DNA of 16,680 nt, from positions 1 to 16,680 of the forward strand of contig JBDREN010000237.1 in the NCBI GenBank assembly GCA_043819795.1, written 5' to 3'. Source of the stretch: Elusimicrobiota bacterium. GTDB taxonomy: Bacteria; Elusimicrobiota; Elusimicrobia; UBA1565. The notes below the pieces were generated by a model, which saw only the letters and a list, made by a program, of their open reading frames with translations, was not told the DNA's origin and ran no database searches. Shown here in pieces: positions 3,001 to 16,680 of this stretch; the first letter of the stretch is position 1; each line of letters starts with the position of its first letter. The translations under genes and the position numbers were made by a program.

Positions 3001-4188
3001 ATCCTCCAGCAACGCCCCTGCGCCGCGCTCGAGGCCGGGGTGGCGGGCTGGTGGCGCGGGGAAGGGAGCGCCGCCGACGAGGTCCCGAACGGGAGCGACG
3101 GAACGCTCCGCAACGGCGCGGACTTCGCGTCGGGCAAGGTCGGCCAGGCCTTCAGCCTCGACGGGATCGACGACCACGTCGACATCCCCCGGTCGCCGGC
3201 TCTCCTTGACGTGACCCAGGACATGACCTTGACGGCCTGGATCAAGCCCGACCGCCTCGATATCGGCCGCCAGACCGTCATCGGGGCCGAGGACGGCCTG
3301 ACCGGCGCCTGGGAGATGGCCCTCAACGGCCACAGGCTGGAGTTCCGCCATCTGGATGTGGAGGATATCGTCTCCGCCGGGCCCGGGCTCGGCGACACCG
3401 AATGGCATCATGTCGCCGTCGTGCGCGGCGGATCCTCCGGGGACTGGGAGTATTCCTACTATGTCGACGGGCGGCTCGACGGCGTCGCGAGCCGCGGCGG
3501 CGACCTCGTGCCCCGCGACACCGACACGCTCCTGGGGCTGGGGAGGGACGGCGCGTTCCCGTTCGGCGGCCTCATCGACGAGGCCGCGGTCTTCGGCCGG
3601 GCCCTTTCGGCCGAAGAGATCCAGGCCGTCTTCGCCGCGGGCGCCGCGGGGATGTGCCCCGAGATCAACCAGCTGCCCGTCGCGGAGGCCGGGCCGGACC
3701 GCGCGGCGCTGGCCGGCATCGCGGTCGCCTTCGACGGGTCGGCATCGGCGGATCCCGACGGGGAGATCGTGAGCTTCGACTGGGACTTCGGCGACGGCGC
3801 GGCGGGCGCCGGGCCGGCGGCCAGCCACGTCTATCCATCCGCGGGCATCTTCGCGGTCACGCTGACGGTCTCGGACGATGACGGCGCGACCGGGACGGAT
3901 ACCGCCATCGTGACGGTGCGATCGCCCGACCAGGCCATCGCGGACCTCGCCGCCGAAGTCTCGGCCCTCGCCCTGCCGGCCGGGACTTCGCAGTCGCTCC
4001 GATCCAAGCTCGTCGCCGCCATGAGCTCGGCGGACAAGAAAAAAGACACGGCGGCGAGGGGACAGCTCCAGGCGTTCATGAACGAAGTGCGGGCCCAGCG
4101 GGGCAAGCGCCTCACGGCGGATCAGGCCGACGCCCTGCTGGCCGCGGCCGGCGAGATACTGGCTTCCCTTGAGGCGCTGAACCCGTAG
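1..4188 (+). CDS. Giant repetitive secreted/surface protein, 5'-truncated by the window: tandem ~100-aa repeats, LamG-like domain, Ig-like (He_PIG-type) domain, second LamG-like domain, PKD domain, C-terminal helical (FIMAH-like) domain
   Basis: Open frame from the window edge, starting mid-repeat, to TAG at 4186-4188. LamG-like blocks (GLVSWWPGEG...GKVGQSFGFDG...WHHAAVV...FYIDGQL...GLIDEAAVFGRAL) lie at ~2113-2745 and ~3019-3657. An Ig-like segment (GALPPGLELSAEGLFTGAPTQAGSFTFTVQV) lies at ~2752-3010. A PKD domain (FDGSASADPDGEIVSFDWDFGDG...VTLTVSDDDG) lies at ~3667-3920. The helical tail (SLRSKL...ARGQLQAFMNEVRAQRGK) lies at ~3925-4185. Confidence 0.85.
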   Translation, partial: HVRTSGLGVEPYGDDPAPLQLRIAEGGTINLHGSYCDAGLCVGQDADIVIQDGHTYTVSVPGGQVTDSETPGSTALLFAFDFHYMDVALKTVDMAGEPLPGAVFTCVEGFGLPPHEPYPSPQTVHMADGGSICVGGEYHDLGLGVSNGQWREVAQGHTYTINTHTNELISDEATPGATEVRFAFDFHYMDVALKTVDMTGEPLPGTVFACVEGFGLSVNEPYPSPQTVHMADGGSICVGGEYYNLGLGASNSQWREVFQGHTYTINTHTGELISDEATPGATEVRFAFDFQPLDLIVDTVDSSGAHLPGDIELRTPGLNMEPGTYPAPIEVRIADGGWIDLKAHYCDAGLCMSQKANLMVQGGHTYTVNVPGGEVTDRETPGSTAVLFAFHFQYLDILLDAVDASGTHLPGDIEVRTPGLGMEPGTYPAPVNLRMADGGNIDLKAHYCDAGLCMSQKANLMVQGGHTYTVNVPGGEVTDQETPGSTAVLFAFHFQYLDLLLDAVDASGGHVPGDIEVRTPGLSVEPGTYPAPVELRMADGGNIDLKAHYCDAGLCMSRKANLTVQGGHTYTVNVPGGEVTDQETPGSTAVLFAFDFLYMDVEVATVDMEDEPLPGTVLACAEGFGLPVDEPYPSPQMVHMADGGSICLGGRYSDEAIDVSKARWLNVQQGRTYRIDMRTGESTSESTPSATRVLFVAPIEPEPPCGPPPAGLVSWWPGEGDASDIQGGNDGRPVNGAAFAPGKVGQSFGFDGADDGVFIARSDSLDLTQEMTLMAWIKPARLDIGRQTLFGADCDLSGTWEFVLDVNSLGFHYVNMADIVSPGPGLGDTDWHHAAVVRGGSSGNWTYTFYIDGQLDGATAHDGDLVSRNSGTLLGLGRNGAASFGGLIDEAAVFGRALAAEEIQAVFAAGGAGMCQPPPHVLTTSLPDGAVGEPASMRVRAAGGAPPLSFGLAAGALPPGLELSAEGLFTGAPTQAGSFTFTVQVLDAAGSTDSRELNLVILQQRPCAALEAGVAGWWRGEGSAADEVPNGSDGTLRNGADFASGKVGQAFSLDGIDDHVDIPRSPALLDVTQDMTLTAWIKPDRLDIGRQTVIGAEDGLTGAWEMALNGHRLEFRHLDVEDIVSAGPGLGDTEWHHVAVVRGGSSGDWEYSYYVDGRLDGVASRGGDLVPRDTDTLLGLGRDGAFPFGGLIDEAAVFGRALSAEEIQAVFAAGAAGMCPEINQLPVAEAGPDRAALAGIAVAFDGSASADPDGEIVSFDWDFGDGAAGAGPAASHVYPSAGIFAVTLTVSDDDGATGTDTAIVTVRSPDQAIADLAAEVSALALPAGTSQSLRSKLVAAMSSADKKKDTAARGQLQAFMNEVRAQRGKRLTADQADALLAAAGEILASLEALNP
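4..2100 (+). repeat. Intragenic tandem array of two related module types: partial B, A, A, B, B, B, diverged A
   Basis: A units begin YMDV at ~250, ~562 and ~1792 (312-nt period for the adjacent pair). B units begin Q(P/Y)LD at ~871, ~1177 and ~1483 (306-nt period). Adjacent same-type copies are nearly identical in DNA. Both types share ADGGxI, QGxTYT and TPGxTxVxFAFxF. Confidence 0.92.
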
Positions 4189-4395: not shown

Positions 4396-5301
4396 GTGGT
4401 CAGAACAATCAGCCGTTTGTTTCTGGTCTGGACGTTCTTAGCAACAACCTCGAGTACGGCTCAATCCCAGACCCTGGAAGGCGCCAAGGTCCCGCAAGGG
4501 GACGGCTCTCGGCGCCCGCTTCTGCTTGCCCAGCTGCCCCTTCCCGCCGGGAGCTTCGATTGGACGCGGCTGAACCGTCTCTTCGACGCGTCCAAAGCGC
4601 GCGAGCCGCTCAAGAAGGACGCCCCCGACGGGGCCGTCAAGAGGCCGGCGCGGCCGGCCGCGCCCAAGGCCCCGGAGCGGCGCTTGGTGCGCGGCAGGCT
4701 CAAGCAGACCCGCCATCCGCTCGTCGTCCCCACGCCGAAGGCCACGGAAGCGTACCGGCGCACGTTCGGGTACCTGATGGCGCGGCCGGACAAGACGGAC
4801 CGCTTCGACGAGATCATCCTGAAATACGCCTACAAGTTCGAGCTCGACCCGCGCCTCCTGAAGGCCATCATGGCCGCCGAGTCGGAGTTCAACCGCTTCG
4901 CCCGCTCGCCGGTGGGAGCGCGCGGCCTGATGCAGGTGATGCCGCGGACCGCCGCGTCCATGGGAGTGCCCGGCAACCGGCTGACCGACCCCGTGCAGAA
5001 CGTCCGGGCCGGAGCCAGCTACCTCGCCCATCTATTCAGCAGGGTCTGGCGGCGCTACAAGCTCAAGGGGGTCCGCTTCCAGGACGCCCCGCTTTGGGTG
5101 GTGCAGCGGGTCTTGGCGGCCTACCACGCCGGGCCCCGGTTCCTCTACAAGAACCGCTGGTTCCGCTCGACGCGCCACTACGTGCGCAAGGTCCTGCTCT
5201 TCTACCAGTCCGGCGTGACCGACATCCGGCGCCTGCCGGATGAGAAGCGGCAGGTCACGGAGATGACGATCATCCCCTCGTCTTCGGGCTCGTTCCGCTA
5301 G
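4396..5301 (+). CDS. Exported lytic transglycosylase (SLT domain, GH23-like)
   Basis: N-terminal signal peptide (ISRLFLVWTFLATTSSTAQS). SLT motifs: LDPRLLKAIMAAES (catalytic Glu), SPVGARGLMQVMPRTA, DPVQNVRAGASYL, LAAYHAGP and TRHYVRKV. Confidence 0.92.
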   Translation: MVRTISRLFLVWTFLATTSSTAQSQTLEGAKVPQGDGSRRPLLLAQLPLPAGSFDWTRLNRLFDASKAREPLKKDAPDGAVKRPARPAAPKAPERRLVRGRLKQTRHPLVVPTPKATEAYRRTFGYLMARPDKTDRFDEIILKYAYKFELDPRLLKAIMAAESEFNRFARSPVGARGLMQVMPRTAASMGVPGNRLTDPVQNVRAGASYLAHLFSRVWRRYKLKGVRFQDAPLWVVQRVLAAYHAGPRFLYKNRWFRSTRHYVRKVLLFYQSGVTDIRRLPDEKRQVTEMTIIPSSSGSFR

Positions 5302-5346: not shown

Positions 5347-5350
5347 TTGC

Positions 5351-5380
5351 TGGACACCGCTTCCGGCAAATTCCTACCAT
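5351..5380 (+). promoter_or_regulatory. Putative sigma70-type promoter of the flavin reductase-like gene
   Basis: -35 TGGACA (5351-5356), 18-nt spacer, -10 TACCAT (5375-5380). Confidence 0.5.
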
Positions 5381-5391
5381 TACAGCATCTT

Positions 5392-5433
5392 GGATTTTTG
5401 AGAAGATTTCCATGGAAATCTTCTCAAAAATCC
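5392..5433. repeat. Perfect 42-bp AT-rich palindrome with no spacer
   Basis: GGATTTTTGAGAAGATTTCCA|TGGAAATCTTCTCAAAAATCC; the two 21-nt halves are exact reverse complements. Confidence 0.95.
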
Positions 5434-5451
5434 GCTTCCAGACCGCGCTCC

Positions 5452-6060
5452 ATGGAACTCGAGCCCGACGACCTGTCCACCGGCGACCGCTACAAGCTGA
5501 TGACCTCGGTCATCCAGCCTCGCCCGATCGCCTGGGTCTCCACCCAGGACAAATACGGCTGCAACAACCTGGCGCCCTTCAGTTTCTTCACCGGGATCAC
5601 GGCCAAGCCCATGACGCTGTGCTTCGCGCCGGCCCTCGACGGCGAAGGGAGGAAGAAGGACACGCTCGTCAACATCGAGGCGACCGGCGCGTTCGTCGTG
5701 AACGCGGCCACCGAGGCCACCGCCGGCAAGATGGTCCAGACCTCGGCCGCCTATCCGTACGGCGTCGACGAGTTTAAGAAGGCGGGCCTCACCCCGGAGC
5801 GCAGCCTCTTGGTCGATCCCCCGCGAGTGAAGGAGTCCCCGGTCAGCCTCGAATGCAAGCTCGACCGGGTGCTCGAGATCTCCAAGGGACCGATGGGAGG
5901 CAACCTGGTGATCGGCACCGTCGTCTACGTCCGGATCCACGACGCGCTTTGGAAGCAAGGGCGCGTCTCCCACCGGGACCTGAAAGCCGTCGGCCGCCTC
6001 GAGGGCCGGTGGTACTCCCGCGTCACCGACGACCTCGAGATCCCCTGGCCCAAGATCTAG
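5452..6060 (+). CDS. Flavin reductase-like FMN-binding protein (DIM6/NTAB, flavoredoxin-like family)
   Basis: Motifs YKLMTSVIQPRPIAWVST, NLAPFSFF, KDTLVNIEATGAFVVN, PPRVKESPVSLECKL and VGRLEGRWY. Family similarity begins at ATG 5452 (MELEPDDL), not at the ORF-track start 5347. Confidence 0.9.
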   Translation: MELEPDDLSTGDRYKLMTSVIQPRPIAWVSTQDKYGCNNLAPFSFFTGITAKPMTLCFAPALDGEGRKKDTLVNIEATGAFVVNAATEATAGKMVQTSAAYPYGVDEFKKAGLTPERSLLVDPPRVKESPVSLECKLDRVLEISKGPMGGNLVIGTVVYVRIHDALWKQGRVSHRDLKAVGRLEGRWYSRVTDDLEIPWPKI

Positions 6061-6557
6061 GCGGTTCCCTCGGAGAGCAGGCCGCGCCCGCGCGTGCGCA
6101 GCCAGCGCCGGTGGGCCTTGTGGTCGGGGCACCAACGCTCGACCAGCCTCCAGAAATCCCGGGAATGGCTCATCTCCAGAAGGTGGGCCAGCTCGTGGAC
6201 GACGACGTAGTCGAGGACCTCCGGCGGCGCGAGGGTCAGCCGCCAGTTGAAGTTCAGGTTCCCCTTGGCCGAGCAGCTCCCCCAGCGCGTCCGCTGGTCC
6301 TTCACGCGGACCTTCCCGTAGCCCACGCCCATGACCCGGCTCCAGTCCTCGACCCGCGACGCCAGGACCGACGCGGCGCGCCGCCGCTCAGTCGCGTGGC
6401 GGGGCCGCGCCCGGCCGGCCGGCCTCGTCACGGGCCCGAATCCTTCGCCGGGGCGGGGGAACAAGCCCGGCAGCCCGCCGCGAAGGTCCGTCAGGAAGCG
6501 GCGGACCTCCTCGACGAGCCGGGCGGTCCGCTGCCTGCCGGCTCCGAAGAGCTGCAC
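6057..6557 (-). CDS. YgjP/DUF45-like zinc metallopeptidase-family protein (M48/SprT-like)
   Basis: Motifs VKDQRTRWGSCS, LNFNWRL, DYVVVHELAHL (HExxH) and HSRDFWRLV. The probable start is GTG 6557, 7 nt after a TACAAT box. The stop overlaps the convergent gene's stop in CTAG 6057-6060. Confidence 0.85.
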   Translation of the reverse strand: MQLFGAGRQRTARLVEEVRRFLTDLRGGLPGLFPRPGEGFGPVTRPAGRARPRHATERRRAASVLASRVEDWSRVMGVGYGKVRVKDQRTRWGSCSAKGNLNFNWRLTLAPPEVLDYVVVHELAHLLEMSHSRDFWRLVERWCPDHKAHRRWLRTRGRGLLSEGTA

Positions 6558-6564
6558 GGCATGG

Positions 6565-6570
6565 ATTGTA
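6565..6570 (-). promoter_or_regulatory. Putative -10 box for the metallopeptidase gene
   Basis: TACAAT on the - strand, 7 nt upstream of the in-frame GTG at 6557. Confidence 0.55.
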
Positions 6571-6611
6571 GCCAATCCGAGAGGGCGGGAGAAGAGCTCC
6601 CCCGTGAAGAC

Positions 6612-6640
6612 TTGAAAAATTAATATATGCGGGCTACCAT
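6612..6640 (+). promoter_or_regulatory. Sigma70-type promoter of the rotor/stator operon
   Basis: -35 TTGAAA (6612-6617), 17-nt AT-rich spacer, -10 TACCAT (6635-6640), in the divergent intergenic region. Confidence 0.7.
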
Positions 6641-6641
6641 T

Positions 6642-6662
6642 GGAGGAATCCTGGATTCCTCC
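6642..6662. promoter_or_regulatory. Operator-like inverted repeat over the predicted transcription start
   Basis: GGAGGAATCC-T-GGATTCCTCC is a perfect 10-1-10 palindrome immediately after the -10 box. Confidence 0.6.
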
Positions 6663-6718
6663 GGAAATTCCCGCCGAAATCTCCGGAAAGTCCCGTCCAT
6701 CGAAGTCTCGGAGCGAGG

Positions 6719-8365
6719 ATGAGCCGACTTCACGCGGCCTTGCCGCTGACACTATGCTTCCTGTGGCTGCTTCCGGCACCAGGCCGCGCGGCCTCGGCTC
6801 CCCATACGTCCAGCGAGCTGGAGGCACTGATCGCATACGAGAACTCGTTGGAGGACCGCTTGCAGGCGGCCCTCCGCAAGGAGTTCCACACCGACGATGT
6901 ATTCGTCGTCGTCAAGGTCGATCTGCAGAAGAAGACCGAGAAGCAAGCCGAAGAGATCATGCCCGGCGTGCCGATCCCGGCCTCGGCCAACGCGCCGCCC
7001 GTGACGCGGTGGGTGGTCAGCGAGATGTGGGCCAAGGTCTTCATCCGCCAGGGTATCACCGAGGACGAGAAGAAGATCATCGAGGATACGGCCAAGCATG
7101 TGGTGGGTCTGGGTCCCCAGAGCGTGCATGTCGTGGTGAAGGACACCATCAGGCAGCCGACGGTCGAGCCGGACTCCCCCTACGCCGCCTTCTGGAATCC
7201 CGCCTGGCTGCTCTCGCTCTCGTGGCTGCTCATCATCTGCGTGGCGCTCGGCCTGATCTTCATCCGGTTCCTCGCCCCTCTTCTGGGGGTGATCCGGGAC
7301 ATGACCGCCGCCCGGGCCGGCGCCGGGCAGCGGGAGGCGGCCAAGACTGACGCGCAAGCCGCGGAGCGGCTCGCGGCCCTGGAGGAGACGCCCGAGCTCC
7401 AGCGAGCCGCGGCCGAGACCGACGGGGGGGCCGGGGAGAACCTGCCGTTCTCGTTCGTCCGGGAGCGCCACGTCCCCATGATCAAGTTCCTCTTGAGGCG
7501 CGCCCAGCCGCGCACCGCGGCCGTGGTCGTGCACTACCTGCCGCCGCGGCTGGCGGCCGGCGTCCTGTCCGAGCTCGATCCCGGGGCGCGCCAGGAGGTC
7601 GTCGGGCACATGCGCAAGGTCGTACAGCTCGACGAGGCCAACGTGCGGGCCATCGAGCGGGCCCTGCGCTCGCGGATCGACTACCTCATGGGCGGCGAGG
7701 ACAAGCTGGCGGAGATCCTCGACGAATCCCCGACGAGCCTGCAGGAGGAGCTGCTCGAGGCGGTGGGCACGAAGGACCCGGCGCTGGGCCGGCGCCTGGG
7801 CCTGAGGATCGTGCGTCTCGAGGACCTGGCCCTGCTCGGGCCGGCCGACTTCAAGCTCCTCACCCAGCGCGTGCCCCTGCCAAGCCTGGCGGCGGTCCTA
7901 AAGCACTCCAAGGAGCTCGCGGACCGGATCCTTCCCAAGCTCACGGGAGGCTTCGGCGAGCGCCTCAGCGAGGAGATCGAGCTCACCGGCGAGCTGCCGC
8001 CGCCCCGCCTCGCGGCCCAGCAGAGCCGCGTGCTCCGCGCTCTGTCCCGGCTCGTGCGCGAGGGCCACGTGGTCCTCAAGAAGGAGACGCTTGGCTATAC
8101 CGAGACCGAAGCCGAGGCCGAGCCGGCCGGTGTGGAGAGCCTTCCGCCTCCGGTCGCCGCGGGCGACGCGGGGGAGGGGCCGGCCCCGGAGCCTTTGGCC
8201 GCGCCCGAAGCCGGCGGCGAGGCCACGGCCGACGCGCCGGAGCTCGTCGACGAGAAGGCCCTGCCGGCTCCTCCGAAGAAACCGCCGGAGGAACACGGCG
8301 GCGGACCCGTTGAGAAGCGCGCCGCCCGCGGCGAGGGCGGCGTGAGCGAAGACACCCCCGCATAG
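6719..8365 (+). CDS. Membrane-anchored FliG-like rotor protein: signal peptide, FliF-ring-like periplasmic domain, TM helix, FliG middle and C-terminal domains, acidic Pro/Ala tail
   Basis: Signal peptide ending PGRAA. Periplasmic part (YENSLEDRLQAAL...VFVVVKVDL...MPGVP...AKVFI...IIEDTAKHVVGL...SVHV) has a FliF RBM3-like pattern. TM helix at ~7205-7295. FliG-M-like segment (PFSFV...LLRRAQPRTAAVVVHYLPPRLAAGVLSEL...VRAIERAL) from ~7445. Gly-Gly linker at 7691-7696. FliG-C-like segment (GGEDKLAEIL...DPALG...LEDLALL...LAAVLK...EEIELTG...QSRVLRALSRLVREGHVVL) to ~8080. It lies directly upstream of motA. Confidence 0.8.
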   Translation: MSRLHAALPLTLCFLWLLPAPGRAASAPHTSSELEALIAYENSLEDRLQAALRKEFHTDDVFVVVKVDLQKKTEKQAEEIMPGVPIPASANAPPVTRWVVSEMWAKVFIRQGITEDEKKIIEDTAKHVVGLGPQSVHVVVKDTIRQPTVEPDSPYAAFWNPAWLLSLSWLLIICVALGLIFIRFLAPLLGVIRDMTAARAGAGQREAAKTDAQAAERLAALEETPELQRAAAETDGGAGENLPFSFVRERHVPMIKFLLRRAQPRTAAVVVHYLPPRLAAGVLSELDPGARQEVVGHMRKVVQLDEANVRAIERALRSRIDYLMGGEDKLAEILDESPTSLQEELLEAVGTKDPALGRRLGLRIVRLEDLALLGPADFKLLTQRVPLPSLAAVLKHSKELADRILPKLTGGFGERLSEEIELTGELPPPRLAAQQSRVLRALSRLVREGHVVLKKETLGYTETEAEAEPAGVESLPPPVAAGDAGEGPAPEPLAAPEAGGEATADAPELVDEKALPAPPKKPPEEHGGGPVEKRAARGEGGVSEDTPA

Positions 8366-8378
8366 GAGAGACCCGCGC

Positions 8379-9164
8379 ATGGACCTGATGACCGTCCTCG
8401 GCAGCCTCTGCGGCTTGGGCGTGATCTTCTACATCCTCATCGCCCAGGACCTCGCGGAGTTCCTCCTCAACACCCACGCCTTCGTCCTCATCTTCGGCGG
8501 AACGGCCGGCGCGGTCATGATCAGCTACCCCTGGTCCGCCCTCAAAGAGGTCCCCAACGCCGTGTGGATGATGCTCTTTCCGCACAAGCGGCCCCCGTCC
8601 GCCGTGCTCGTCCAGGCCTTCATCCGTCTGGCGGAGAAGGCGCGCCGCGACGGCGTCGACTCCCTCGAGCCCGAGATGGCCGGCCTCCCGCACCCCTTCA
8701 TGCAGGACTGCCTGCAGATGATCCTCGACGGCCTCGACAAGGAGACGATCGAGGACCGCTGCGAGCGCGACATCCTGGCCACGCGGCAGCGCCACCAGCA
8801 GGTGAGCACCGTCTTCCGCTCGGCCGGCACCTACTCCCCCATCTTCGGCCTGCTAGGGACCCTGATCGGCGTCGTGGAGGTACTGCGCACGATCGAGGAG
8901 CCCACGAAGATCGCCTCCTCGATGGCGGTGGCGATGACGGCCTCCTTCTACGGGATCTTCGCGGCCAACTTCCTGTTCTTGCCGATCGCCAACAAGCTGG
9001 CATTCTATTCCGACGAGGAGGTCCTCAACCGGGAGCTGATCTCCAAGGGCAGCATCTCCCTGCAGCAGGGCGAGGCCCCCTGGCTGCTCTCGAAGAGGCT
9101 TGAGGCCTACCTCTCGTTCCACCTGCGCCGTGCCGGCGCGAAGAACTACAAGGCCCGCGCATGA
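8379..9164 (+). CDS. motA: Flagellar-type stator A subunit (MotA/PomA family)
   Basis: SD AGGAGAG. Four hydrophobic segments. Motifs IFGGTAGA, LAEKARRDGVDSLE (the Arg and Glu used in rotor contact), PFMQDCLQMILDG, YSPIFGLLGTLIG, MAVAMTASFYGIFAANFLFLPIANKL and LQQGEAP. Confidence 0.93.
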   Translation: MDLMTVLGSLCGLGVIFYILIAQDLAEFLLNTHAFVLIFGGTAGAVMISYPWSALKEVPNAVWMMLFPHKRPPSAVLVQAFIRLAEKARRDGVDSLEPEMAGLPHPFMQDCLQMILDGLDKETIEDRCERDILATRQRHQQVSTVFRSAGTYSPIFGLLGTLIGVVEVLRTIEEPTKIASSMAVAMTASFYGIFAANFLFLPIANKLAFYSDEEVLNRELISKGSISLQQGEAPWLLSKRLEAYLSFHLRRAGAKNYKARA

Positions 9165-9183: not shown

Positions 9184-9855
9184 GTGATACCGTTCTTCCA
9201 CCGGATGGCCCCGGCCACGATGGAGGAGAACCCCCTCTGGCTGGTCGTGCTCTGCGACCTGATGACGAACCTCATGCTGTTCTTCCTCGCCATGTTCGCC
9301 CTCACCCAGGGCGCCATCGCCGAAAGGGAGAGGACCTTCGAGGTGACCGGCATCATCGAGATGCCGGAGGCGCGCCTGCCCGAGAGGTTCCCCGAGTTCC
9401 GGGCGCCGGCGGCCGCCGAGGCCCTGGAGAGGCTGTTCCAAGAGGAGGGCCGGGCGATCGTCGTTATCGATGCGAAGCGCGAGAACGCGATCCGGGTCCG
9501 CCTGCTGGACCGCATCCTGTTCCGGAGCGCCGAAGCGGACCTCAGCCCCGCGGCGGAGCGGGCGATCAGGCTCCTGGCGGGGGTGCTCAGGGAGATCCCC
9601 AACGAGATTGTGGTCGAAGGCCATACCGACGTGGTGCCGATCGTGTCCGGACAGTTCGATAGCAACTGGGAGCTCTCGGTGGCGCGCTCCTACGCGGTGA
9701 TCGAACGGCTCATGCGGGAAGGCGTCGAGCCCGAAAGGCTCGTGGCGGCCGGCTACGGCGAGCACCACCCGGTCGCGCCGAGCGATACGCGCGCGGGCCG
9801 CGAGCGCAACCGGCGCGTCGAGATCGTCATCCTTAGAGAGGAGGAGCGGACGTGA
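9184..9855 (+). CDS. motB: Stator B subunit (MotB family) with OmpA-like peptidoglycan-binding domain, copy 1
   Basis: TM segment WLVVLCDLMTNLMLFFLAMFAL carries the conserved Asp. Also ILFRSAEADL, IVVEGHTD, SNWELSVARS, AGYGEHHP and NRRVEIVI. The start is uncertain: GTG 9184, ATG 9205 or ATG 9220. Confidence 0.88.
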   Translation: MIPFFHRMAPATMEENPLWLVVLCDLMTNLMLFFLAMFALTQGAIAERERTFEVTGIIEMPEARLPERFPEFRAPAAAEALERLFQEEGRAIVVIDAKRENAIRVRLLDRILFRSAEADLSPAAERAIRLLAGVLREIPNEIVVEGHTDVVPIVSGQFDSNWELSVARSYAVIERLMREGVEPERLVAAGYGEHHPVAPSDTRAGRERNRRVEIVILREEERT

Positions 9856-10529
9856 GTCCGAAAGCCGGCCGCCACGCGGCGATCTCCTCCCTTAAAGGGG
9901 ACGGCCTGCCGACCTCGCTCTGGATGGTCCCCTACGCGGACCTCATGTCGGCGTTGATGATCCTGTTCCTCGTGTTGTTCGCGGCCTCCTACGGGAAGGC
10001 ATCCTTCAAGTTCCTCGAGCGGGCGAAGAAGATCGTGGAGCAGGTGGGCAAGGCGGAGGTCGAGGCCGCCGCCCCGGGCGGCCCGATCGTCGGCGCGATC
10101 GAGGACGAGATGGACCGCCTCGCGCTCAAGGACTTCGGCATGCGCGTCACCTCGCGCTACATCCACCTGACGTTGCCGTCGCCGGTCCTCTTCCGCATGG
10201 GCTCGGCCAGGCTCACCCCCTCGGCAAAGCGCTACCTCATGCCGCTCGGGCGCGTGATCGCCAAGTTCCCCAACCCGGTGCTCGTGGCCGGCCATACCGA
10301 CGACCTGCCCATCCGCGGCGGGTCCCACAATACGAACTGGGAGCTCTCGGCCGCGCGCGCCTTCTCGGTGATCGATTTCTTCGTCCAGCGCGGCCTGCCG
10401 CCCTCGCGGTTCCAGGCCCGCGGCTACGGGGAGTACCGGCCGGTGGACACCAACGAGACCGCCGACGGCCGGCGCAACAACCGCCGCATCGAGATCCGCC
10501 TGGTCCGCGAGGCGCGCAAGGAGCCATGA
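9852..10529 (+). CDS. motB: Stator B subunit (MotB family) with OmpA-like peptidoglycan-binding domain, copy 2
   Basis: GTGA overlap with the previous stop and SD GAGGAG. TM segment WMVPYADLMSALMILFLVLFAAS. Also VLFRMGSARL, VLVAGHTDD, NWELSAARA, RGYGEYRP and NRRIEI. Confidence 0.92.
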   Translation: MSPKAGRHAAISSLKGDGLPTSLWMVPYADLMSALMILFLVLFAASYGKASFKFLERAKKIVEQVGKAEVEAAAPGGPIVGAIEDEMDRLALKDFGMRVTSRYIHLTLPSPVLFRMGSARLTPSAKRYLMPLGRVIAKFPNPVLVAGHTDDLPIRGGSHNTNWELSAARAFSVIDFFVQRGLPPSRFQARGYGEYRPVDTNETADGRRNNRRIEIRLVREARKEP

Positions 10530-11446
10530 GGGAGCTCTCCGCCTACCTGCTGGCCCTGGTGCTTTGCGCGGCCCCGCTGTTCGCGGTGAGGCCCGAGAGC
10601 GCCTCCGCCCCCTCGACGGGAGGAGAGCGCGGGCAAGCAGACGCCTCGGAGGATGTGACCGGAGAGGAGCTTAAGGAGCGCTACGACACCGCCCTGCGCC
10701 ACTACGGTTCGGGCGACTATAGCAAGGCCATCCTCCAGTACACCGAGATACTCAAGCTCGATCCCCGGCAGAAGAGGGCCGATGAGATGATCCGCAGGGC
10801 CCGCGAGCGGATCGCCCAAAGGGACAAGGAGCTGGCCCTGTTCGGGCACGTCCGCGCCGGGGAGTACCAGAAGGCCCTCGTGGCGCTGCAGCCGCTGTTG
10901 GACGGCGACCCCGGGCATCCGCTCTACAAGAGGCTGCAGGAGCGCCTGGAGGACGTGATCGAGGTCTGCGGCCCCAAGGCCCCGGAAGGCAGGGCCTGGC
11001 GAGCGGCGAAGAAGGGGCTGGCCGGGCTCCTGGGAGCTGAGGAGGACCTCCAGCTCGCCTACGACGCGCTCCGCCACGCCCGGGACATCGAGCCGGACGA
11101 GGCGCGTTTCGCGAGGTTCATCAAGCTCGCGCTCGAGGTCAAGCCCGGCCTGGCGCAGGACAAGATCACCCCGGGGATGACCTTGCTGGAGTACCTGCGC
11201 GCCGTCGCGCTCGAGCACATCTACGACGGAAAGTATCACCTGGCCGTCCGGGTGCTGACCCGGGCCTTGGCCTTCGAGCCCGACGACCTCGTCTGCCTCA
11301 AACGGCTGGGCTCCGCGTACTACGCGCTCAAGCGCTGCGCCAAGGCCGCGGAGGCCTGGGACAAGGCGCTCCAGAGCGCCCCCGCCGACGCCAAGATGAA
11401 GGAGTTCCTCGAACGCGCGCGGCGCTGCGCGCAAGAGCCCCGGTAG
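10526..11446 (+). CDS. Exported tetratricopeptide-repeat protein
   Basis: ATGA overlap with the motB2 stop. Signal peptide (LSAYLLALVLCAAPLFA). TPR-like units: ALRHYGSGDYSKAILQYTEILKLDP, IYDGKYHLAVRVLTRALAFEPDD and LKRLGSAYYALKRCAKAAEAWDKALQSAP. Confidence 0.85.
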   Translation: MRELSAYLLALVLCAAPLFAVRPESASAPSTGGERGQADASEDVTGEELKERYDTALRHYGSGDYSKAILQYTEILKLDPRQKRADEMIRRARERIAQRDKELALFGHVRAGEYQKALVALQPLLDGDPGHPLYKRLQERLEDVIEVCGPKAPEGRAWRAAKKGLAGLLGAEEDLQLAYDALRHARDIEPDEARFARFIKLALEVKPGLAQDKITPGMTLLEYLRAVALEHIYDGKYHLAVRVLTRALAFEPDDLVCLKRLGSAYYALKRCAKAAEAWDKALQSAPADAKMKEFLERARRCAQEPR

Positions 11447-11451
11447 GCCTA

Positions 11452-12213
11452 CTACTTCTTCTTCTCTCTCAGTTTGAAGCGGAACGTCTTCTTCTTGCCG
11501 CCCTTCTTGTATCTGAGCTTGAGCTCCAGCTCTTTTTGGTCGCGCCGCATCTTCTGGGCGCGCTCGAGGAGCCTCTCGATCCGCTTCGGACGGATACCCT
11601 TCTGCCAGACCTCGCGGTCCTCCTTGCCCATCTTCCGGGGCGCCTCCGGAGCGTCGGCGGCGCTGGCGACGCGCGTCACTTGGCCGGCCGTGAGGGCCTG
11701 CCGGCCGTGTTCGTTGAACACGTCCGCGTGCCCTTCGTAGACCTTGACGTCGAGGCGCCCGCTGATCGCCGCGTCCACCTCGGTGCCCCGCACGGAGACC
11801 ACGGCCAAGGGCGTGCCGATCCTGACCTGGGCCCTTCGGTGGAGCATGCGCGTCCACACCTGGCCGATCTTGAAGGCGACCACTGCGGGCAGGGACCCGG
11901 TGCCTCCGTCCTTCACCTCGAAGACCGTCTTCTCGTTGAGACGGATCTCCACGCCGGAGAGCAGCGCCAGGGAGGCCAGATCTCCCCTGCGCGTCTCTAC
12001 GACGTCGCCTTGGCGGAGGAACATCCCCACATCGAGGGGCACGGGCTTCGGGCTGTCGGGCCGCTTCAGCTGCGGCGCGCCCTCGACGGCGACGGCCACG
12101 CCCTGCACCGGCCGGTCGGCCGCCGCGGCGACCCGCGACCCGCAAAGAAGGCCGGCCGCGAGGGCCAGGGCCCCGGCTAGATACGCTTTAGGCGGGATCG
12201 ATCGGGCATCCAT
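11452..12213 (-). CDS. Exported FecR-domain protein with Lys-rich C-terminus (paralog 2)
   Basis: Signal peptide ending RVAAAA. FecR-like motifs LRQGDVVET, EIRLNEKT, IGTPLAVVSVRGTE and VKVYEGHADV. Confidence 0.82.
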   Translation of the reverse strand: MDARSIPPKAYLAGALALAAGLLCGSRVAAAADRPVQGVAVAVEGAPQLKRPDSPKPVPLDVGMFLRQGDVVETRRGDLASLALLSGVEIRLNEKTVFEVKDGGTGSLPAVVAFKIGQVWTRMLHRRAQVRIGTPLAVVSVRGTEVDAAISGRLDVKVYEGHADVFNEHGRQALTAGQVTRVASAADAPEAPRKMGKEDREVWQKGIRPKRIERLLERAQKMRRDQKELELKLRYKKGGKKKTFRFKLREKKK

Positions 12214-12218
12214 GATCT

Positions 12219-12629
12219 CTACTCCTGGCCCGCGCCGAGGCTTTCCAGGGCCTCGGCCGCGCGGCGGCGCACCTCGGGACTCTCCTCACCCAGCTTGCGG
12301 CGCAATGGACCCACGGCCCTCGCGTCCCCGAGCCGGCCCAGGGACTGCGCCGCGTTGATCACGACCGCGGCCTCGGGATCGTCCAGGGCCCGGATGAGCG
12401 GCTCCACGGCGCGCGCGTCCCCCCTCAGGCCCAGCTGGTGCGCGGCGTGCGCGCGCTCGAAGAGCTTGCCGTCCCCGAGCCTGGCGAGCTCCCGCGCGAG
12501 CGGGTCCTCCGCGCCGAAGAGCCTCACCTCGGGGACATGCAGCCCCAGCGTCCATCCCGCGCCCACGCAGGCCGCGGCCAGAAGCGCCAGGCCGGCCCTG
12601 CGCAGCGGCGTCTCTCGGGGTCCCCTCAT
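12219..12629 (-). CDS. Small HEAT-repeat (PBS lyase/HEAT_2-like) protein with N-terminal membrane anchor or signal
   Basis: Hydrophobic N-terminus (AGLALLAAACVGAGWTLGL). Repeats AAHQLGLRGDARAVEPLIRALDD, AAQSLGRLGDARAVGPL and VRRRAAEALESLG. Confidence 0.85.
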   Translation of the reverse strand: MRGPRETPLRRAGLALLAAACVGAGWTLGLHVPEVRLFGAEDPLARELARLGDGKLFERAHAAHQLGLRGDARAVEPLIRALDDPEAAVVINAAQSLGRLGDARAVGPLRRKLGEESPEVRRRAAEALESLGAGQE

Positions 12630-12669: not shown

Positions 12670-14637
12670 TCAAAAGGAATACGAATAGCGCGTCGCCACG
12701 GTCAGCTCGCTGGCGTCCTGAGAGGTCTGGATCTTGTCCTGGATCTTGTTGTAGCCGAGACCCAAAGTCAGGCTCGAGCGCTGGCTCTGCGCCCAGGTGA
12801 ACTCGGAGTTGAGCGCCGTATCCTGCCTGTCGGCCGGAAACGCGGGCGAGGTGTTCTCGCTCTTGGTCAGCGTGGCCCAGAACTGAATGGTCCAGTCCGC
12901 GCTCAGGCGCTTGGCCAGGCTCGGCGAAACCGTCAGCGAGGTGCGCGTGGAGCCGTCGGCCTTGTCCTTGGTCTGCGACCGCGTTATCCCGAACGAGGCG
13001 TTGACGGCGCGCGGCAGAAAGAAGTTCGAGGAGAGCGCGACCGTGTTCGTGTCCAGGTCGTCGGCCAGCTTGTTGTTGTCGGTGAACCGGCTGTTCTGGA
13101 CGCTCAGCGACACGCTCTGGCGGCCGAAGCTGTGCGCGACCCCGAAGCCGGCGGTCGTGGTCTGGTTGTCGAGCGCGGTCGCGGGCTTGCCCTTGGCCGT
13201 GTTCAGCGAGAGCGAGAGGCTCAGGCTCGTCGCGGCCGGGAGCTGGAACGCGTGGCTCGTGGCGATGTACCGCTGCGTGGTCGTGACCTTGGCCGGGTCG
13301 TTGTCGAGGTTGTCAATATACTGGTTCAGCGACAATGAGAGGGTGTACCAGGAGGCCGGGAACAAGCCCAGCGACCCGTTGTACGTCATGCGGTCGCCGA
13401 CGACCGCCGGCGAGCCGAAAGCGACGAAGTCCGACCCGGCCCGCTGCAGGTACGTCCGAAGCTTGAAGATCTTGCGCTCCCACCGGAACTCGCCCTTGTA
13501 CGCCGTGTCCTTGACCCCGGGCTGGCTCGTGTCGGCATAGTACGTGTTGAGCTGGTAGTCCACCAGCACCTTCATGCGCGGCCGCGGGTCCCACGAGAGC
13601 CCGAGGCCGTAGCCGCCGTTCTTCTGGGGAACGAGGGTCGGCCCGCGGAAGTTGGCCGAGTCGGGATCGGTGTTGAGCGACCCGCTCTCATCGGCGCTCA
13701 GGAAGTAGTTGACCGAGAGCTTGACGTTGGCCGGCAAGCTCCTGGCGCACTCCGCCGCGTAGAGCGTCCGGGCGAAGCGGCCGTTGGCCGTCTGCGTGCC
13801 CGGCTGGGACTCGATCGTCTGCCCGCCGAGCACGGACCATTCCCAGGGCCCCTTCTTCTGCTCGAGCCATACGCCCCGCATCCCCTGGCCGTTGAGCGAG
13901 AGCTCGCTCAAAGTCGGGGAGATGTCCCCCCCGTAGACCGTGCCCCAGGGCGCGTAGTAGGTGAAGAGGAGGATGAAGGGGTCGAAGACGTCGCCGGGCT
14001 CGTGCAGGATGTAGGCGTTGAACAGATACGAGGAGTCCTTGATCTTGCCGACCGTGTTGAACGTCGTGGCGCCCGAGTGCTCGCTCCAGGCGTCGCCGCT
14101 CGCGTTCTTGTAGGAGACCGTCACGTTGCCCTCGACGCGGTAGTCCACGGGCTTGGGCGGCTCGGGGATCGGCTTGGCGAGGATCTGGAACGGCTTGAAA
14201 TCGGAGTCCACCAGCGTCTGGCCGTCCTTGATGAGGAGGACGCGGTAAAGCCGCCGCCCGACCATCGTCGCGGGGACGCGGAAGGGAAGCGAGATCGACG
14301 CCACGCCCCCCGGAGCCACGCTGTCGCGCGGGGAGACCTGGTCGGTCCTCCCCACGAGCTTCTCTTCGATCTCGTAGACATACGCGACCCAGTAGTAGCT
14401 GCCGGCCGCCCACGCCTGCGCCCCGGTGTTCACGACCAGAGCCTGCAGCGCGACCGTGTCCCCGGCGTGGACGGGATCCGGCGCGGGGAGCGTGAACTGA
14501 AGGCTCGCCGAGTCGGCGGCGCGGGCGGGCGCCGGAACCGCCAAGCCGATAGCGAGCGCGCACAGGCAAGCCGACATCCGGGGACGGGCCCCTGGTGTCG
14601 ACTTGCCGCGGGCGTCGGTGGCGTGGCTGTCGCGCAT
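12670..14637 (-). CDS. Putative outer-membrane beta-barrel protein with N-terminal Ig-like domain
   Basis: Signal peptide (ACLCALAIGLAVPAPARA; alternative start ATG 14577). Ig-like N-domain (VHAGDTVALQALVVNTGAQAW...VAPGGVASISLPF). Pro linker PIPEPPKP. Then ~490 aa of alternating amphipathic strands rich in S/T/N/Y/G, ending in the beta-signal-like VATRYSYSF. Confidence 0.78.
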   Translation of the reverse strand: MRDSHATDARGKSTPGARPRMSACLCALAIGLAVPAPARAADSASLQFTLPAPDPVHAGDTVALQALVVNTGAQAWAAGSYYWVAYVYEIEEKLVGRTDQVSPRDSVAPGGVASISLPFRVPATMVGRRLYRVLLIKDGQTLVDSDFKPFQILAKPIPEPPKPVDYRVEGNVTVSYKNASGDAWSEHSGATTFNTVGKIKDSSYLFNAYILHEPGDVFDPFILLFTYYAPWGTVYGGDISPTLSELSLNGQGMRGVWLEQKKGPWEWSVLGGQTIESQPGTQTANGRFARTLYAAECARSLPANVKLSVNYFLSADESGSLNTDPDSANFRGPTLVPQKNGGYGLGLSWDPRPRMKVLVDYQLNTYYADTSQPGVKDTAYKGEFRWERKIFKLRTYLQRAGSDFVAFGSPAVVGDRMTYNGSLGLFPASWYTLSLSLNQYIDNLDNDPAKVTTTQRYIATSHAFQLPAATSLSLSLSLNTAKGKPATALDNQTTTAGFGVAHSFGRQSVSLSVQNSRFTDNNKLADDLDTNTVALSSNFFLPRAVNASFGITRSQTKDKADGSTRTSLTVSPSLAKRLSADWTIQFWATLTKSENTSPAFPADRQDTALNSEFTWAQSQRSSLTLGLGYNKIQDKIQTSQDASELTVATRYSYSF

Positions 14638-14698: not shown

Positions 14699-15484
14699 CT
14701 ATTTTTTCTTCTTGAGCCTCAGGTTGAGCTCCTTCTCCTCGCCGCCTTTCCCCTTGTACTTGAGCTTGAGCATGCGGGTCCGCCCGGACTCCTCGTGCAG
14801 CCGCTTGAGCTTCTTGTCCACGTCCTTGGGGGAGAGAGCGTCCTGCCAGCTCCCGTACTCCCCCGCCTCGAGCTTCCGCGCCGGCTGAGGCGCCTGGCCG
14901 GCCCCGGCCACCTGCGTGGTCATCCCGGCCTGCAGCGACTGCCGCCCGTGGTCGTTGGAGACGTCCACGTGGCCTTCGTAGACTTTGACCGTCATCCTTT
15001 CCTGTATGTCCACGTCCGCCTCCGTCCCGCGGACCGAGGCGACCGCCAGCGGCGTCCTGACCTGCATCCCGGCCCGGCCATGCAGGAGCCGGGTCCATAT
15101 CTGGCCGGCCCGCGAGAACACGCTGGTCGCGCTGCGGCCGCCCCCCGACTCGACGAGGAACTCGGAGCTCTCGTTGATGCGCATTTCGGCCCCGCCGATG
15201 AAGGCGATGGCCGCCCGCTCGCCCGCGCCCGTCTTCACGAGGTCCCCGTCGTAGACGAACTTATTGAGCTTCAGGCGCCTGAACTTACCCTCGCCCCCGC
15301 GCCGGACCATGGGCTTGCCCTTCACGTCGATGACGACCCCGGCCACGATGTCGCCCTTGGACGCCGCGGCCGCCGGCGCGGGCGCCGCCGCCGAGGCCGA
15401 CAAAACGGCCAGCGCCGCCAGGACGGCCAAGGCGCACGGGCTCCGCCGCGCCCCGGCCGGAACGCTTCCTCTCGTGTTCGTCAT
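14699..15484 (-). CDS. Exported FecR-domain protein with Lys-rich C-terminus (paralog 1)
   Basis: ATG 15484 overlaps the upstream TGA (ATGA) and has SD GGGAGG. Signal peptide (CALAVLAALAVLSASAAA). Motifs VYDGDLVKTG, EMRINESS, VRTPLAVASVRGTE and VKVYEGHVDV. Confidence 0.85.
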   Translation of the reverse strand: MTNTRGSVPAGARRSPCALAVLAALAVLSASAAAPAPAAAASKGDIVAGVVIDVKGKPMVRRGGEGKFRRLKLNKFVYDGDLVKTGAGERAAIAFIGGAEMRINESSEFLVESGGGRSATSVFSRAGQIWTRLLHGRAGMQVRTPLAVASVRGTEADVDIQERMTVKVYEGHVDVSNDHGRQSLQAGMTTQVAGAGQAPQPARKLEAGEYGSWQDALSPKDVDKKLKRLHEESGRTRMLKLKYKGKGGEEKELNLRLKKKK

Positions 15485-16680
15485 GGCGTCTTCCTCCCGA
15501 TGCGTTTGAATTCGACGGCCAGCTCCGTGGCCGGGATGACTCTCAGGCGATAGGGCGCTTTCCCGCGCGCGGCCTCCCGCTTCCCCCCGGGCGCGCCGCG
15601 CACGACCAGGCGGTAGCGGACGACCAGCCCCTCCTGGGTCTCGTGGATCTTCTGTATCTCGACTTGCTCCGCCCCGTCGCCGCTGCCGGCGATGACGCCG
15701 ACCACCATGAACGTGCGGAAATCCACATCCGGCACCTTCCGGTCGCTGATCTGGCGCCAGAGGCGCCTGAACTGCTTGGGCGTGTAAACCTTGACCTCCG
15801 TCACCAGCTTCGAGACCGGGTCCGTGAACCCGCTCCACTCGAGCCTGGACTCGGGCCCCTTCGCGGGCGGAGCCTCCAGGACCGGGGGCGGGGGCGCCAG
15901 GGCATAGACCACCGGCTCGGCTCCGGGCTCCGGAGTCGTCAGCGCCACCTCCACGTTGCCCTTGCGCAGCTCGGCGAGCAGCTCCTCGAGCTCGCCCGCC
16001 GTCAGCGGCGGCTCGATGCCGGCGATCTCGTACTCGTCGAAGCCGAGGCCCTGCTCCTCGAGGACCTCCTTGACGCCCTCCCAGGCCTCCTCCTCGGTCA
16101 GCTCATCGGGCGGCTCCGGGGGCGCGGCGACCGCGACCGGCAGGCCGGGGGCCAGCGGGTAGATCACCGGCGAGGATCCGGGCTCCGGAGTCGTCAGCGC
16201 CACCTCCACGTTGCCCTTGCGCAGCTCGGCGAGCAGCTCTTCGAGCTCGCCCGCCGTCATCGGCGGCTCGATATCGGCGATCTCGTACTCGTCGAAGCCG
16301 AGGCCCTGCTCCTTGAGGGCCTCGCGGACCTCTTCCCAAGCCTCCTCCTCGGGCAGGGCGTCGGCCACAACGGGAACGGGCATCGGCCTCACATCGGGCA
16401 CCAGCACGTAGACCGGCGGCGGGCCCCCGGGCTCCGGACCCGTGAACGTCACGTCCACCCGGCCGTCCCGCAGCTCGGCGAGCAGATGCTCGAGCTCCTC
16501 GCGCGTCAGGCCGCGGTCCAAGCCCTCGAGCTCGTAGTCGTCGAGCTCGAGCCCCTGCTCCTTGAGGGCCTTGCCGATGTCCTCCCAGAGCTCCTCTCGA
16601 TCCATCTCTTCCAGCGGCGGACCGGGGGGCGCGGCCACCGGCGGGCCCGCCGGAGGCGGGGCGCCGGGCGCCGGCGGGGC
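15481..16680 (-). CDS. Pro-rich, acidic-repeat protein with C-terminal PrcB-like domain, 5'-truncated by the window
   Basis: The frame stays open to the window edge (APPAPGAPPPAGPPV...). Three Glu-rich repeats. The C-terminal FRRLWRQI...VPDVDFRTFMVVGVIAG...VEIQKI...LVVRYR...APYRLRVIP resembles the PrcB C-terminal family. Confidence 0.72.
   Translation of the reverse strand, partial: APPAPGAPPPAGPPVAAPPGPPLEEMDREELWEDIGKALKEQGLELDDYELEGLDRGLTREELEHLLAELRDGRVDVTFTGPEPGGPPPVYVLVPDVRPMPVPVVADALPEEEAWEEVREALKEQGLGFDEYEIADIEPPMTAGELEELLAELRKGNVEVALTTPEPGSSPVIYPLAPGLPVAVAAPPEPPDELTEEEAWEGVKEVLEEQGLGFDEYEIAGIEPPLTAGELEELLAELRKGNVEVALTTPEPGAEPVVYALAPPPPVLEAPPAKGPESRLEWSGFTDPVSKLVTEVKVYTPKQFRRLWRQISDRKVPDVDFRTFMVVGVIAGSGDGAEQVEIQKIHETQEGLVVRYRLVVRGAPGGKREAARGKAPYRLRVIPATELAVEFKRIGRKTP
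15895..16610 (-). repeat. Three intragenic acidic repeats of ~83-85 aa
   Basis: Unit EEAWEE(V/I)xxxLxEQGLxxDxYE...TxxELExLLAELRxGxVxVxxTxPEPGxxPxxY. Periods are 255 nt (15941 vs 16196) and ~249 nt. The last two copies are near-identical in DNA. Confidence 0.9.

Follow-up and report, generated by a model that had tools for sequence, protein, structure and literature searches.

A natural FliF-FliG fusion with stator genes in Elusimicrobiota: a likely flagellum-derived envelope motor without the FliM switch

Organization of the locus

The window, the whole stretch of 16,680 nucleotides of an Elusimicrobiota contig that was analysed here, carries a gene for a fusion of FliF and FliG parts, followed on the same strand by motA, two different motB genes and a gene for a tetratricopeptide repeat (TPR) protein, with intergenic gaps of 13, 19, -4 and -4 bases, respectively (Table 1). 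A single weak sigma-70-like site was found at 6612-6640 (0.2 +/- 0.5 in shuffles), and Rfam gave no match inside the window at the gathering score. The best NCBIfam models for the stator genes of the window are flagellar, all scoring below their cut-offs, and the stator is of the flagellar type, with MotA and with MotB carrying the membrane Asp and the OmpA domain. The cassette is adjoined by genes for FecR-domain proteins, an outer-membrane barrel and a CARDB/PrcB-like exported protein; the latter continues on the contig C217, as judged from a 26-base contig overlap, where it is preceded by a protein with a type IX secretion system (T9SS)-type C-terminal domain. This exported protein contains three near-identical acidic repeats (15484-16638, reverse strand). 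The SLT gene stands upstream in three related loci as well.

Table 1. Genes, domains and motifs of the window (positions are those of the window)
Feature	Position	Strand	Basis
LamG/PKD/Ig surface protein, repeat-rich	4-4188		
SLT transglycosylase	4396-5301		
Flavin reductase-like gene	5347-6060		
YgjP-like gene	6057-6836		
FliF(RBM3+TM)-FliG(M,C) fusion gene, 548 aa	6719..8365	+	ORF translation, Pfam, phmmer, model, VIA
Signal peptide, likely cleavable, in place of FliF TM1-RBM1-RBM2	6719..6790	+	By eye, sequence and alignment
RBM3-type FliF ring-building motif, periplasmic, with short collar insertion	6794..7147	+	Model, VIA
Single membrane helix, FliF TM2 equivalent	7211..7288	+	Hydropathy
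FliG middle domain and helix MC	7445..7690	+	Pfam FliG_M, 43.8 bits
AQPR (residues 262-265), column of FliM-binding EHPQ	7502-7513	+	Translation, phmmer, alignment
Gly-Gly linker (residues 325-326), retained	7691-7696	+	Translation, alignment
FliG C domain	7697..8083	+	Pfam FliG_C, 34.9 bits; VIA
IVRL (residues 364-367), column of MFxF hinge (RIVRLEDL, 7805-7828)	7808-7819	+	phmmer, alignment
Torque helix	7949..7975	+	phmmer register to FliG
motA, flagellar type	8379..9164	+	MotA 191.7 bits versus TolQ 17.7; below MotA cut-off of 340
motB1, OmpA domain, membrane Asp at 9256-9258	9184..9855	+	Start inferred from orthologues
motB2, OmpA domain, membrane Asp at 9939-9941	9852..10529	+	
TPR protein, likely signal peptide	10526..11446	+	
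FecR-domain protein, second copy	11452..12213	-	
HEAT-repeat gene	12219-12629		
Outer-membrane protein, predicted Ig-like domain and large beta-barrel	12670..14577	-	
FecR-domain protein	14699..15484	-	
Conserved exported protein, C-terminal part (CARDB / PrcB-like in orthologues)	15481..16680	-	

The gene order fusion-motA-motB-motB-TPR was found in 22/22 related loci examined (in one of them, L049, overlapping frames swap two labels in the count), with intact frames at 18-48% identity, and downstream of the cassette FecR, CARDB-type and CTD proteins are frequent. Of these 22 loci, 20 contain the barrel gene; 12 of the 22 were selected for having barrel and fusion on one contig, and the kin are not independent; a fairer hand count over the 28 barrel-bearing genomes places a FliG match within 4 kb of the barrel in 20, the other eight showing no close link, several of them at contig ends. 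The barrel gene, which in the window lies on the strand opposite to the fusion, precedes it on a common strand in 6 of the last 12 loci, immediately in 5. The barrel is likely to be a dedicated partner of the cassette. Its structure model (pLDDT 67.8, from 8 sequences) matched generic large barrels only, with a best TM-score by query of 0.40.

Domain architecture of the fusion

The FliG_M and FliG_C domains of the fusion exceed the Pfam cut-offs and were also identified by Foldseek and VIA, the C domain matching 1qc7_A with Z 11.0 (rmsd 2.9, 99 aligned). In the predicted model (mean pLDDT 74.7), residues 30-140 form an alpha-beta-beta-alpha-beta domain, for which VIA gave Z 10.5 (rmsd 2.1, 95 aligned) to RBM3 of Salmonella FliF (227-437, 6scn_K), the other ring-building motifs scoring Z 9.6 (PrgK, within 1 Z of FliF), 9.1 (EscJ) and 7.9 (SpoIIIAG). 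Pfam YscJ_FliF_C has no match in the window's own fusion, while the other four paralogues of the genome all have weak ones. Hydropathy windows above 1.6 start only at residues 157-177. A FliG_N match of 16.4 bits, below the cut-off, was placed on the M domain, and, by the alignment gaps, flagellar FliG has 5-9 more residues in the linker that precedes Gly-Gly. The residues 456-548 are an acidic, proline-containing tail with a column conservation of 0.06, compared with 0.43-0.46 for the domains, among which FliG-CC (0.45) is on a par with the others.

The chain order of signal peptide, RBM3, membrane helix, flexible linker, FliG M and FliG C is, therefore, that of a natural FliF-FliG deletion fusion, and not that of a separate FliG with its N domain on a full FliF (RBM1-3, two membrane helices). 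A flagellar fliG as the identity of the gene was rejected in view of this make-up and the searches of the genome, in which no flagellar export gate, filament or FliM was found. The domain scores are well below the fliG cut-off (51.8 versus 226.7 bits).

Flagellar genes in the source genome and the phylum

In the source genome (90.3% complete, 241 contigs), the profile searches, each with positive controls, gave no match to FliM, FliMN_C, FlhA (FHIPEP), flagellin, the N-part of FliF (YscJ_FliF), CheW or CheC. The same genome contains five FliG_C copies, all of them such fusions and three with motA/motB. The paralogue at L009:3531-8481 (C214) has diverged strongly; it is accompanied by TPR and coiled-coil genes but by no motA/motB, and it adjoins groES/groEL-like genes. 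Its gene order is repeated in three relatives.

Across the Elusimicrobiota phylum, FliG_C was found in 57/151 genomes, most of the misses coming from two large families, f4 (0/45) and f12 (1/44). Among the 56 other FliG-positive genomes, FliMN_C occurs in 4 and FlhA in the identical 4, CheW in 13 (none was found in 43, nor in the 3 other genomes of the source genome's family). In 53 of the 56, a FliG_C match falls within a reading frame of 487 aa or longer, which agrees with the fusion, this figure being read from the search output and not from frames confirmed one by one; only 2 of those 53 genomes carry FliMN_C/FlhA. The paralogous FliG sets number up to six per genome. Among the related loci, five of the six labels are Elusimicrobia or unlabelled bacterium and one is Nitrospirota; the protein relatives that carry organism names belong to Elusimicrobia, and the ESM Atlas contains similar FliF_C-FliG clusters, most commonly from Cloacimonadota, Bdellovibrionota and others, which may serve as a lead.

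In a tree of 49 of the 51 locus proteins (those covering the region with over 170 residues, the P proteins being left out), the fusions are separate from four flagellar FliGs and the window-type proteins are set apart on one side of a branch, both with support 100/100; the tree has no outside root and so gives no direction of origin.

Switch motifs

A preliminary description of this DNA, made by manual alignment, had placed AQPR in the column of the FliM-binding motif EHPQ and IVRL in that of the MFxF hinge, with the Gly-Gly linker kept. This alignment proved correct, since phmmer against solved structures pairs the same residues with EHPQ and MFVF of T. maritima FliG (E 2e-16). The roles given there for EHPQ (FliM binding) and MFxF (directional switching) also agree with the accessible text of PMC11853002, PMC6680979 and PMC11673145. 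In one alignment of 114 relatives, the full-length matches drawn from 166 proteins, exact EHPQ is absent (0/114), with His in its column 2 once and Gln in its column 4 six times; the complete MF.F is found in 4, its second Phe in 54 and the Gly-Gly in 104.

However, the change of EHPQ alone does not prove that FliM is missing, because the FliGs of true flagellar clusters in two genomes (G102, G060) also lack it (ESPG, EIPG), with FliM/FliN and FlhA nearby. In another genome (G062), a flagellar FliG with EHPQ occurs together with fusions without it. One short contig (L016 of G121) carries a flagellar-type FliG with both EHPQ and MFVF in a genome without a FliMN_C/FlhA match and is maybe misbinned.

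The further proposal that the rotor has no FliM/FliN C-ring is supported by the genome searches and not by the motif loss alone. That of a rotor free of CheY control stands for the canonical CheY-FliM route, but single-domain receiver proteins (e.g., L007:5285-5659) are encoded in the genome. What the preliminary description overlooked is the larger point, the FliF-FliG fusion in a flagellum-free genome: the decay of the motifs is a side effect, and the system itself is the main finding. One-way rotation would be plausible in this genome; the flagellar FliGs without EHPQ in G102 and G060 and the chemotaxis clusters beside the paralogous operon in G052 and G149 count against this step.

Rotor-stator residues

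In E. coli, MotA R90 and E98 form charge pairs with FliG D289 and R281, respectively (PMC6680979; bioRxiv 2021.01.07.425829, as far as accessible); the Glu98-Arg281 pair is likely involved in torque, according to the accessible part of PMC6680979, and the substitution R281C in FliG abolishes motility, according to that of bioRxiv 2021.01.07.425829. In the phmmer register, the torque helix of the fusion has Gly411 at Arg281 and Glu418-Glu419 at Asp288-Asp289. The Arg281 column holds Gly in 104/114 and Arg in none of the relatives, the Arg being retained in 4/4 flagellar FliGs aligned over it, and the Asp289 column holds Glu in 107/114.

With the MotA register fixed by the 8-residue spacing of R90 and E98 in the cited papers, the window MotA has both equivalents, Arg89 (8643) and Glu97 (8667); the R90 position is K/R in 22/22 loci and the E98 position is acidic in 2/22, the window's own MotA being one of the two. 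Hence, of the two flagellar charge pairs, only R90-D289 is retained and E98-R281 is gone, in rotor and stator alike, a pattern consistent with a genuine rotor-stator contact that has been altered. The loss of the torque-tied Glu98-Arg281 pair counts against rotation.

The membrane Asp of MotB1 is present in 22/22 loci, while the corresponding position of MotB2 is Asp in 14, Asn in 7 (L075, L077, L079, L080, L081, L082 and L085, where the first MotB keeps its Asp) and Thr in 1, and this difference suggests an unequal MotB1/MotB2 pair. In one locus of the main paralogous type (L053), there are also two MotBs, one without Asp.

Paralogous operons and T9SS-like genes

Upstream of the main paralogous type of operon are genes for a giant CTD protein and for a PorV-like barrel that ends in a TPR tail; coiled-coil genes, in some cases with flbD, stand downstream. 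In the source genome, frames of 12,270 aa (C218:1-36810) and 6,644 aa (C56:19552-39483), each with a T9SS-type C-terminal domain, lie directly upstream of paralogous motor operons. The TPR tail of the PorV-like barrel of C218 is 27.9% identical over 197 aa to the TPR protein of the window. The motor operon of C218 has a c-di-GMP-I-GGC riboswitch in its leader (L006:7153-7232). FlbD stands before motA in 5/29 mapped loci, which points to a flagellar origin. Full chemotaxis clusters adjoin the paralogous (PorV-fusion) operon in two genomes, both without FliMN_C: in G052, cheW, R, B, A, C and D follow it directly in the same orientation (L046:489-11360), and in G149 a matching cluster precedes it (L048:1-7684). 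In another locus (L008:10136-12622), a single frame encodes a histidine kinase and a FliF-FliG paralogue, joined by a stretch that resembles a signal peptide; kinase and paralogue are separate genes in L047 and L071. Small exported proteins consisting of a T9SS-type sorting domain alone are encoded before the PorV-like gene in L054 (12343-12729) and four other loci.

The T9SS is generally regarded as restricted to Bacteroidota or the FCB group. The source genome encodes PorV-family shuttles (6 matches, 6 above the cut-off) and CTD-like C-terminal sorting domains on 22 proteins, recognized by an HMM built here (the Pfam/NCBIfam sorting-domain scores of homologues are below cut-off), as well as an SprA/Sov-like protein of 1857 aa (L073:3953-9526, on C134) beside lptF/lptG-like genes. 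The latter matches TIGR04189 with E 8e-42 and 142.6 bits at a cut-off of 200, and a homologue from G007 gave no sequence match to solved structures. GldM was found in 0/57 genomes and GldN in 0/5, no control genome giving a match either. The SprA-like gene occurs in 141/151 genomes of the phylum, including 44/45 of f4 and 35/44 of f12 (79/89), the families almost wholly without FliG; because it persists where the fusion is absent, the motor appears to be accessory and not the general drive of the translocon.

Proposed mechanism and alternative explanations

The observed domain make-up, gene order, missing genes and residue pattern would be best explained, with a fair probability, if the fusion formed a membrane ring turned by the MotA/MotB stators, whose motion is passed to the outer-membrane barrel and surface proteins. 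The system is, then, likely to be a flagellum-derived envelope motor without the FliM switch that acts on surface proteins rather than turning a flagellum. RBM3 would very probably build the periplasmic ring, with FliG M/C polymerising beneath the membrane and the covalent link replacing FliG-N. A MotA pentamer on a MotB1/MotB2 pair, anchored to peptidoglycan by the OmpA domains, probably docks on FliG-C through Arg89-Glu419 and drives the ring. Presumably without a rod, the open periplasmic face may act through the TPR protein on the barrel and the CTD-bearing surface proteins for the movement of adhesins, such as gliding, or the positioning of very large surface proteins, this output and its purpose being, taken together, an even bet. 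If the ring turns, EHPQ and MFxF may have drifted as no FliM binds them, and it seems marginally probable that the ring rotates in a single default direction, with expression as the main means of control.

Rotation as such, and in one direction only, is what we infer, and the same genes might instead form a static scaffold or load sensor, in which the ring docks and positions the stators without turning and their engagement signals contact with a surface, or load on the envelope, to kinases, FecR proteins or c-di-GMP circuits. This would account for the loss of the torque-linked Arg281/Glu98 pair on both sides, the second MotBs without Asp in 8/22 loci, the histidine kinase found in one frame with, or next to, two paralogues (L008, L007), the FecR proteins beside the window cassette and the riboswitch ahead of the C218 operon. 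However, the constancy of the MotB1 Asp, the MotA basic residue and the FliG acidic residue, and the conservation of FliG-CC at the level of the other domains speak against it, and a pure sensor has no need for up to six paralogous sets per genome; the static reading is unlikely. Less likely still is a rotor that is switched or clutched without FliM by a response regulator, a CheC-fold protein or a c-di-GMP effector acting directly on FliG or MotA: the widely kept Gly-Gly and second Phe, the chemotaxis clusters adjoining the paralogous operon in G052 and G149 and the CheW of some FliG-positive genomes fit it, but CheW and CheC have no match in the source genome, and CheW was found neither in the other genomes of its family nor in most FliG-positive genomes.

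That the module is the general energiser of T9SS-like secretion, replacing PorL/M and PorK/N, is improbable and was rejected: the SprA-like protein, PorV matches and CTD-like proteins of the source genome suit such a role, but the translocon gene persists in f4 and f12 without the motor. A decaying flagellar relic, or flagellar genes missing from the assembly, might be suspected from the incomplete genome and the low domain scores against the fliG model. However, the intact and diverged frames in a fixed order, the expansion of paralogues, the separation from flagellar FliGs in the tree and the coexistence in G062 of both kinds of protein leave this a very slight chance, and the relic, too, was rejected.

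A bolder and distinctly tentative extension of the rotating-ring explanation is that the injectisome would be mirrored here by a flagellum-derived machine which retained the motor and dropped the export apparatus, with a switchless one-chain ring turning one way on an asymmetric MotA5-MotB1-MotB2 stator and moving adhesins via dedicated barrels. In that case, a motor of a new type, for gliding or for handling the cell surface, would exist throughout free-living Elusimicrobiota and probably in further phyla; its asymmetric stator has a single ion-binding Asp in several lineages.

Prior descriptions and significance

FliG is treated as a part of the flagellum only. The occurrence of many motAB, flbD and fliG homologues in non-flagellated Elusimicrobiota was noted by Uzun et al. 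(bioRxiv 2022.07.08.499144), who called their role unclear; the accessible text of that work does not mention the fusion or the operon, nor do the accessible parts of PMC12199754, PMC12505986, PMC13277936 and PMC12204202 describe the fusion or the cassette, and bioRxiv 765248 gave no match for the terms gliding, T9SS and motA. Literature searches, the scope of which excluded most subscription papers and the bioRxiv supplements (Fig. S2 of Uzun et al.), retrieved no description of either, and only the remark that such genes occur without flagella was found in print. According to the accessible part of PMC12199754, rotor genes without filament genes are present in 11% of non-motile species, and the use of half a motor was asked; the cassette is a concrete candidate answer to this question.

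A natural minimal rotor of one ring protein and a stator would make it testable which contacts torque needs, what the default direction is without FliM, and whether a 5:2 stator works on one ion site. The annotation of fliG/motAB alone should not be used to label these genomes as flagellated.

Comparison with known systems

The system fits no tested family in full. With the flagellar motor core, it shares the RBM3 fold, FliG M and C, the Gly-Gly, a flagellar-type MotA, MotB with the membrane Asp and OmpA domain and, in some paralogous loci, the order FlbD-motA-motB; the flagellar MotA5B2 stator is of the FIT type (PMC12505986, accessible part). It differs in that a single chain combines FliF and FliG and lacks RBM1/RBM2 and FliG-N, in that no FliM, FliN, export gate or filament was found, in the loss of the Arg281/Glu98 pair, and in having two distinct MotBs with outer-membrane barrel and TPR partners. 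A Salmonella FliF-FliG fusion without FliG-N (fliFG d-f) can carry torque and is CW-biased (PMC6445934, accessible part). In both, FliF is joined straight to FliG and FliG-N is absent, but fliFG d-f is a laboratory mutant with RBM1-3, FliM, FliN and a whole flagellum, whereas the protein described here is natural, shorter and alone.

A type III injectisome is not represented, neither the SctV/FlhA gate nor the SctJ ring being found (FHIPEP 0, YscJ_FliF 0 in the source genome). The T9SS/gliding machinery of Bacteroidota, with SprA, PorV, CTD cargo and GldLM on GldKN, is resembled by the SprA-like, PorV-like and CTD-like proteins of the genome, also beside the paralogous operons. In Bacteroidota gliding, a 5:2 motor works a ring, which is the same principle; however, the motor and ring are here flagellar in origin, and the ring is predicted in the inner membrane. 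In the Agl-Glt system of Myxococcus, one A subunit (AglR) works with two B subunits (AglQ, AglS) and with TPR and outer-membrane barrel partners. The cassette likewise combines one A and two different B subunits with TPR and barrel partners. AglR is a generic TolQ-like transporter in the accessible part of PMC12505986, whereas the MotA of the window scores far higher with the flagellar model than with TolQ (Table 1). Unlike the TolQ/TolR-type motor of Agl-Glt, the cassette unites a flagellar-type MotA, a MotB anchored by an OmpA domain and a ring protein with FliG domains.
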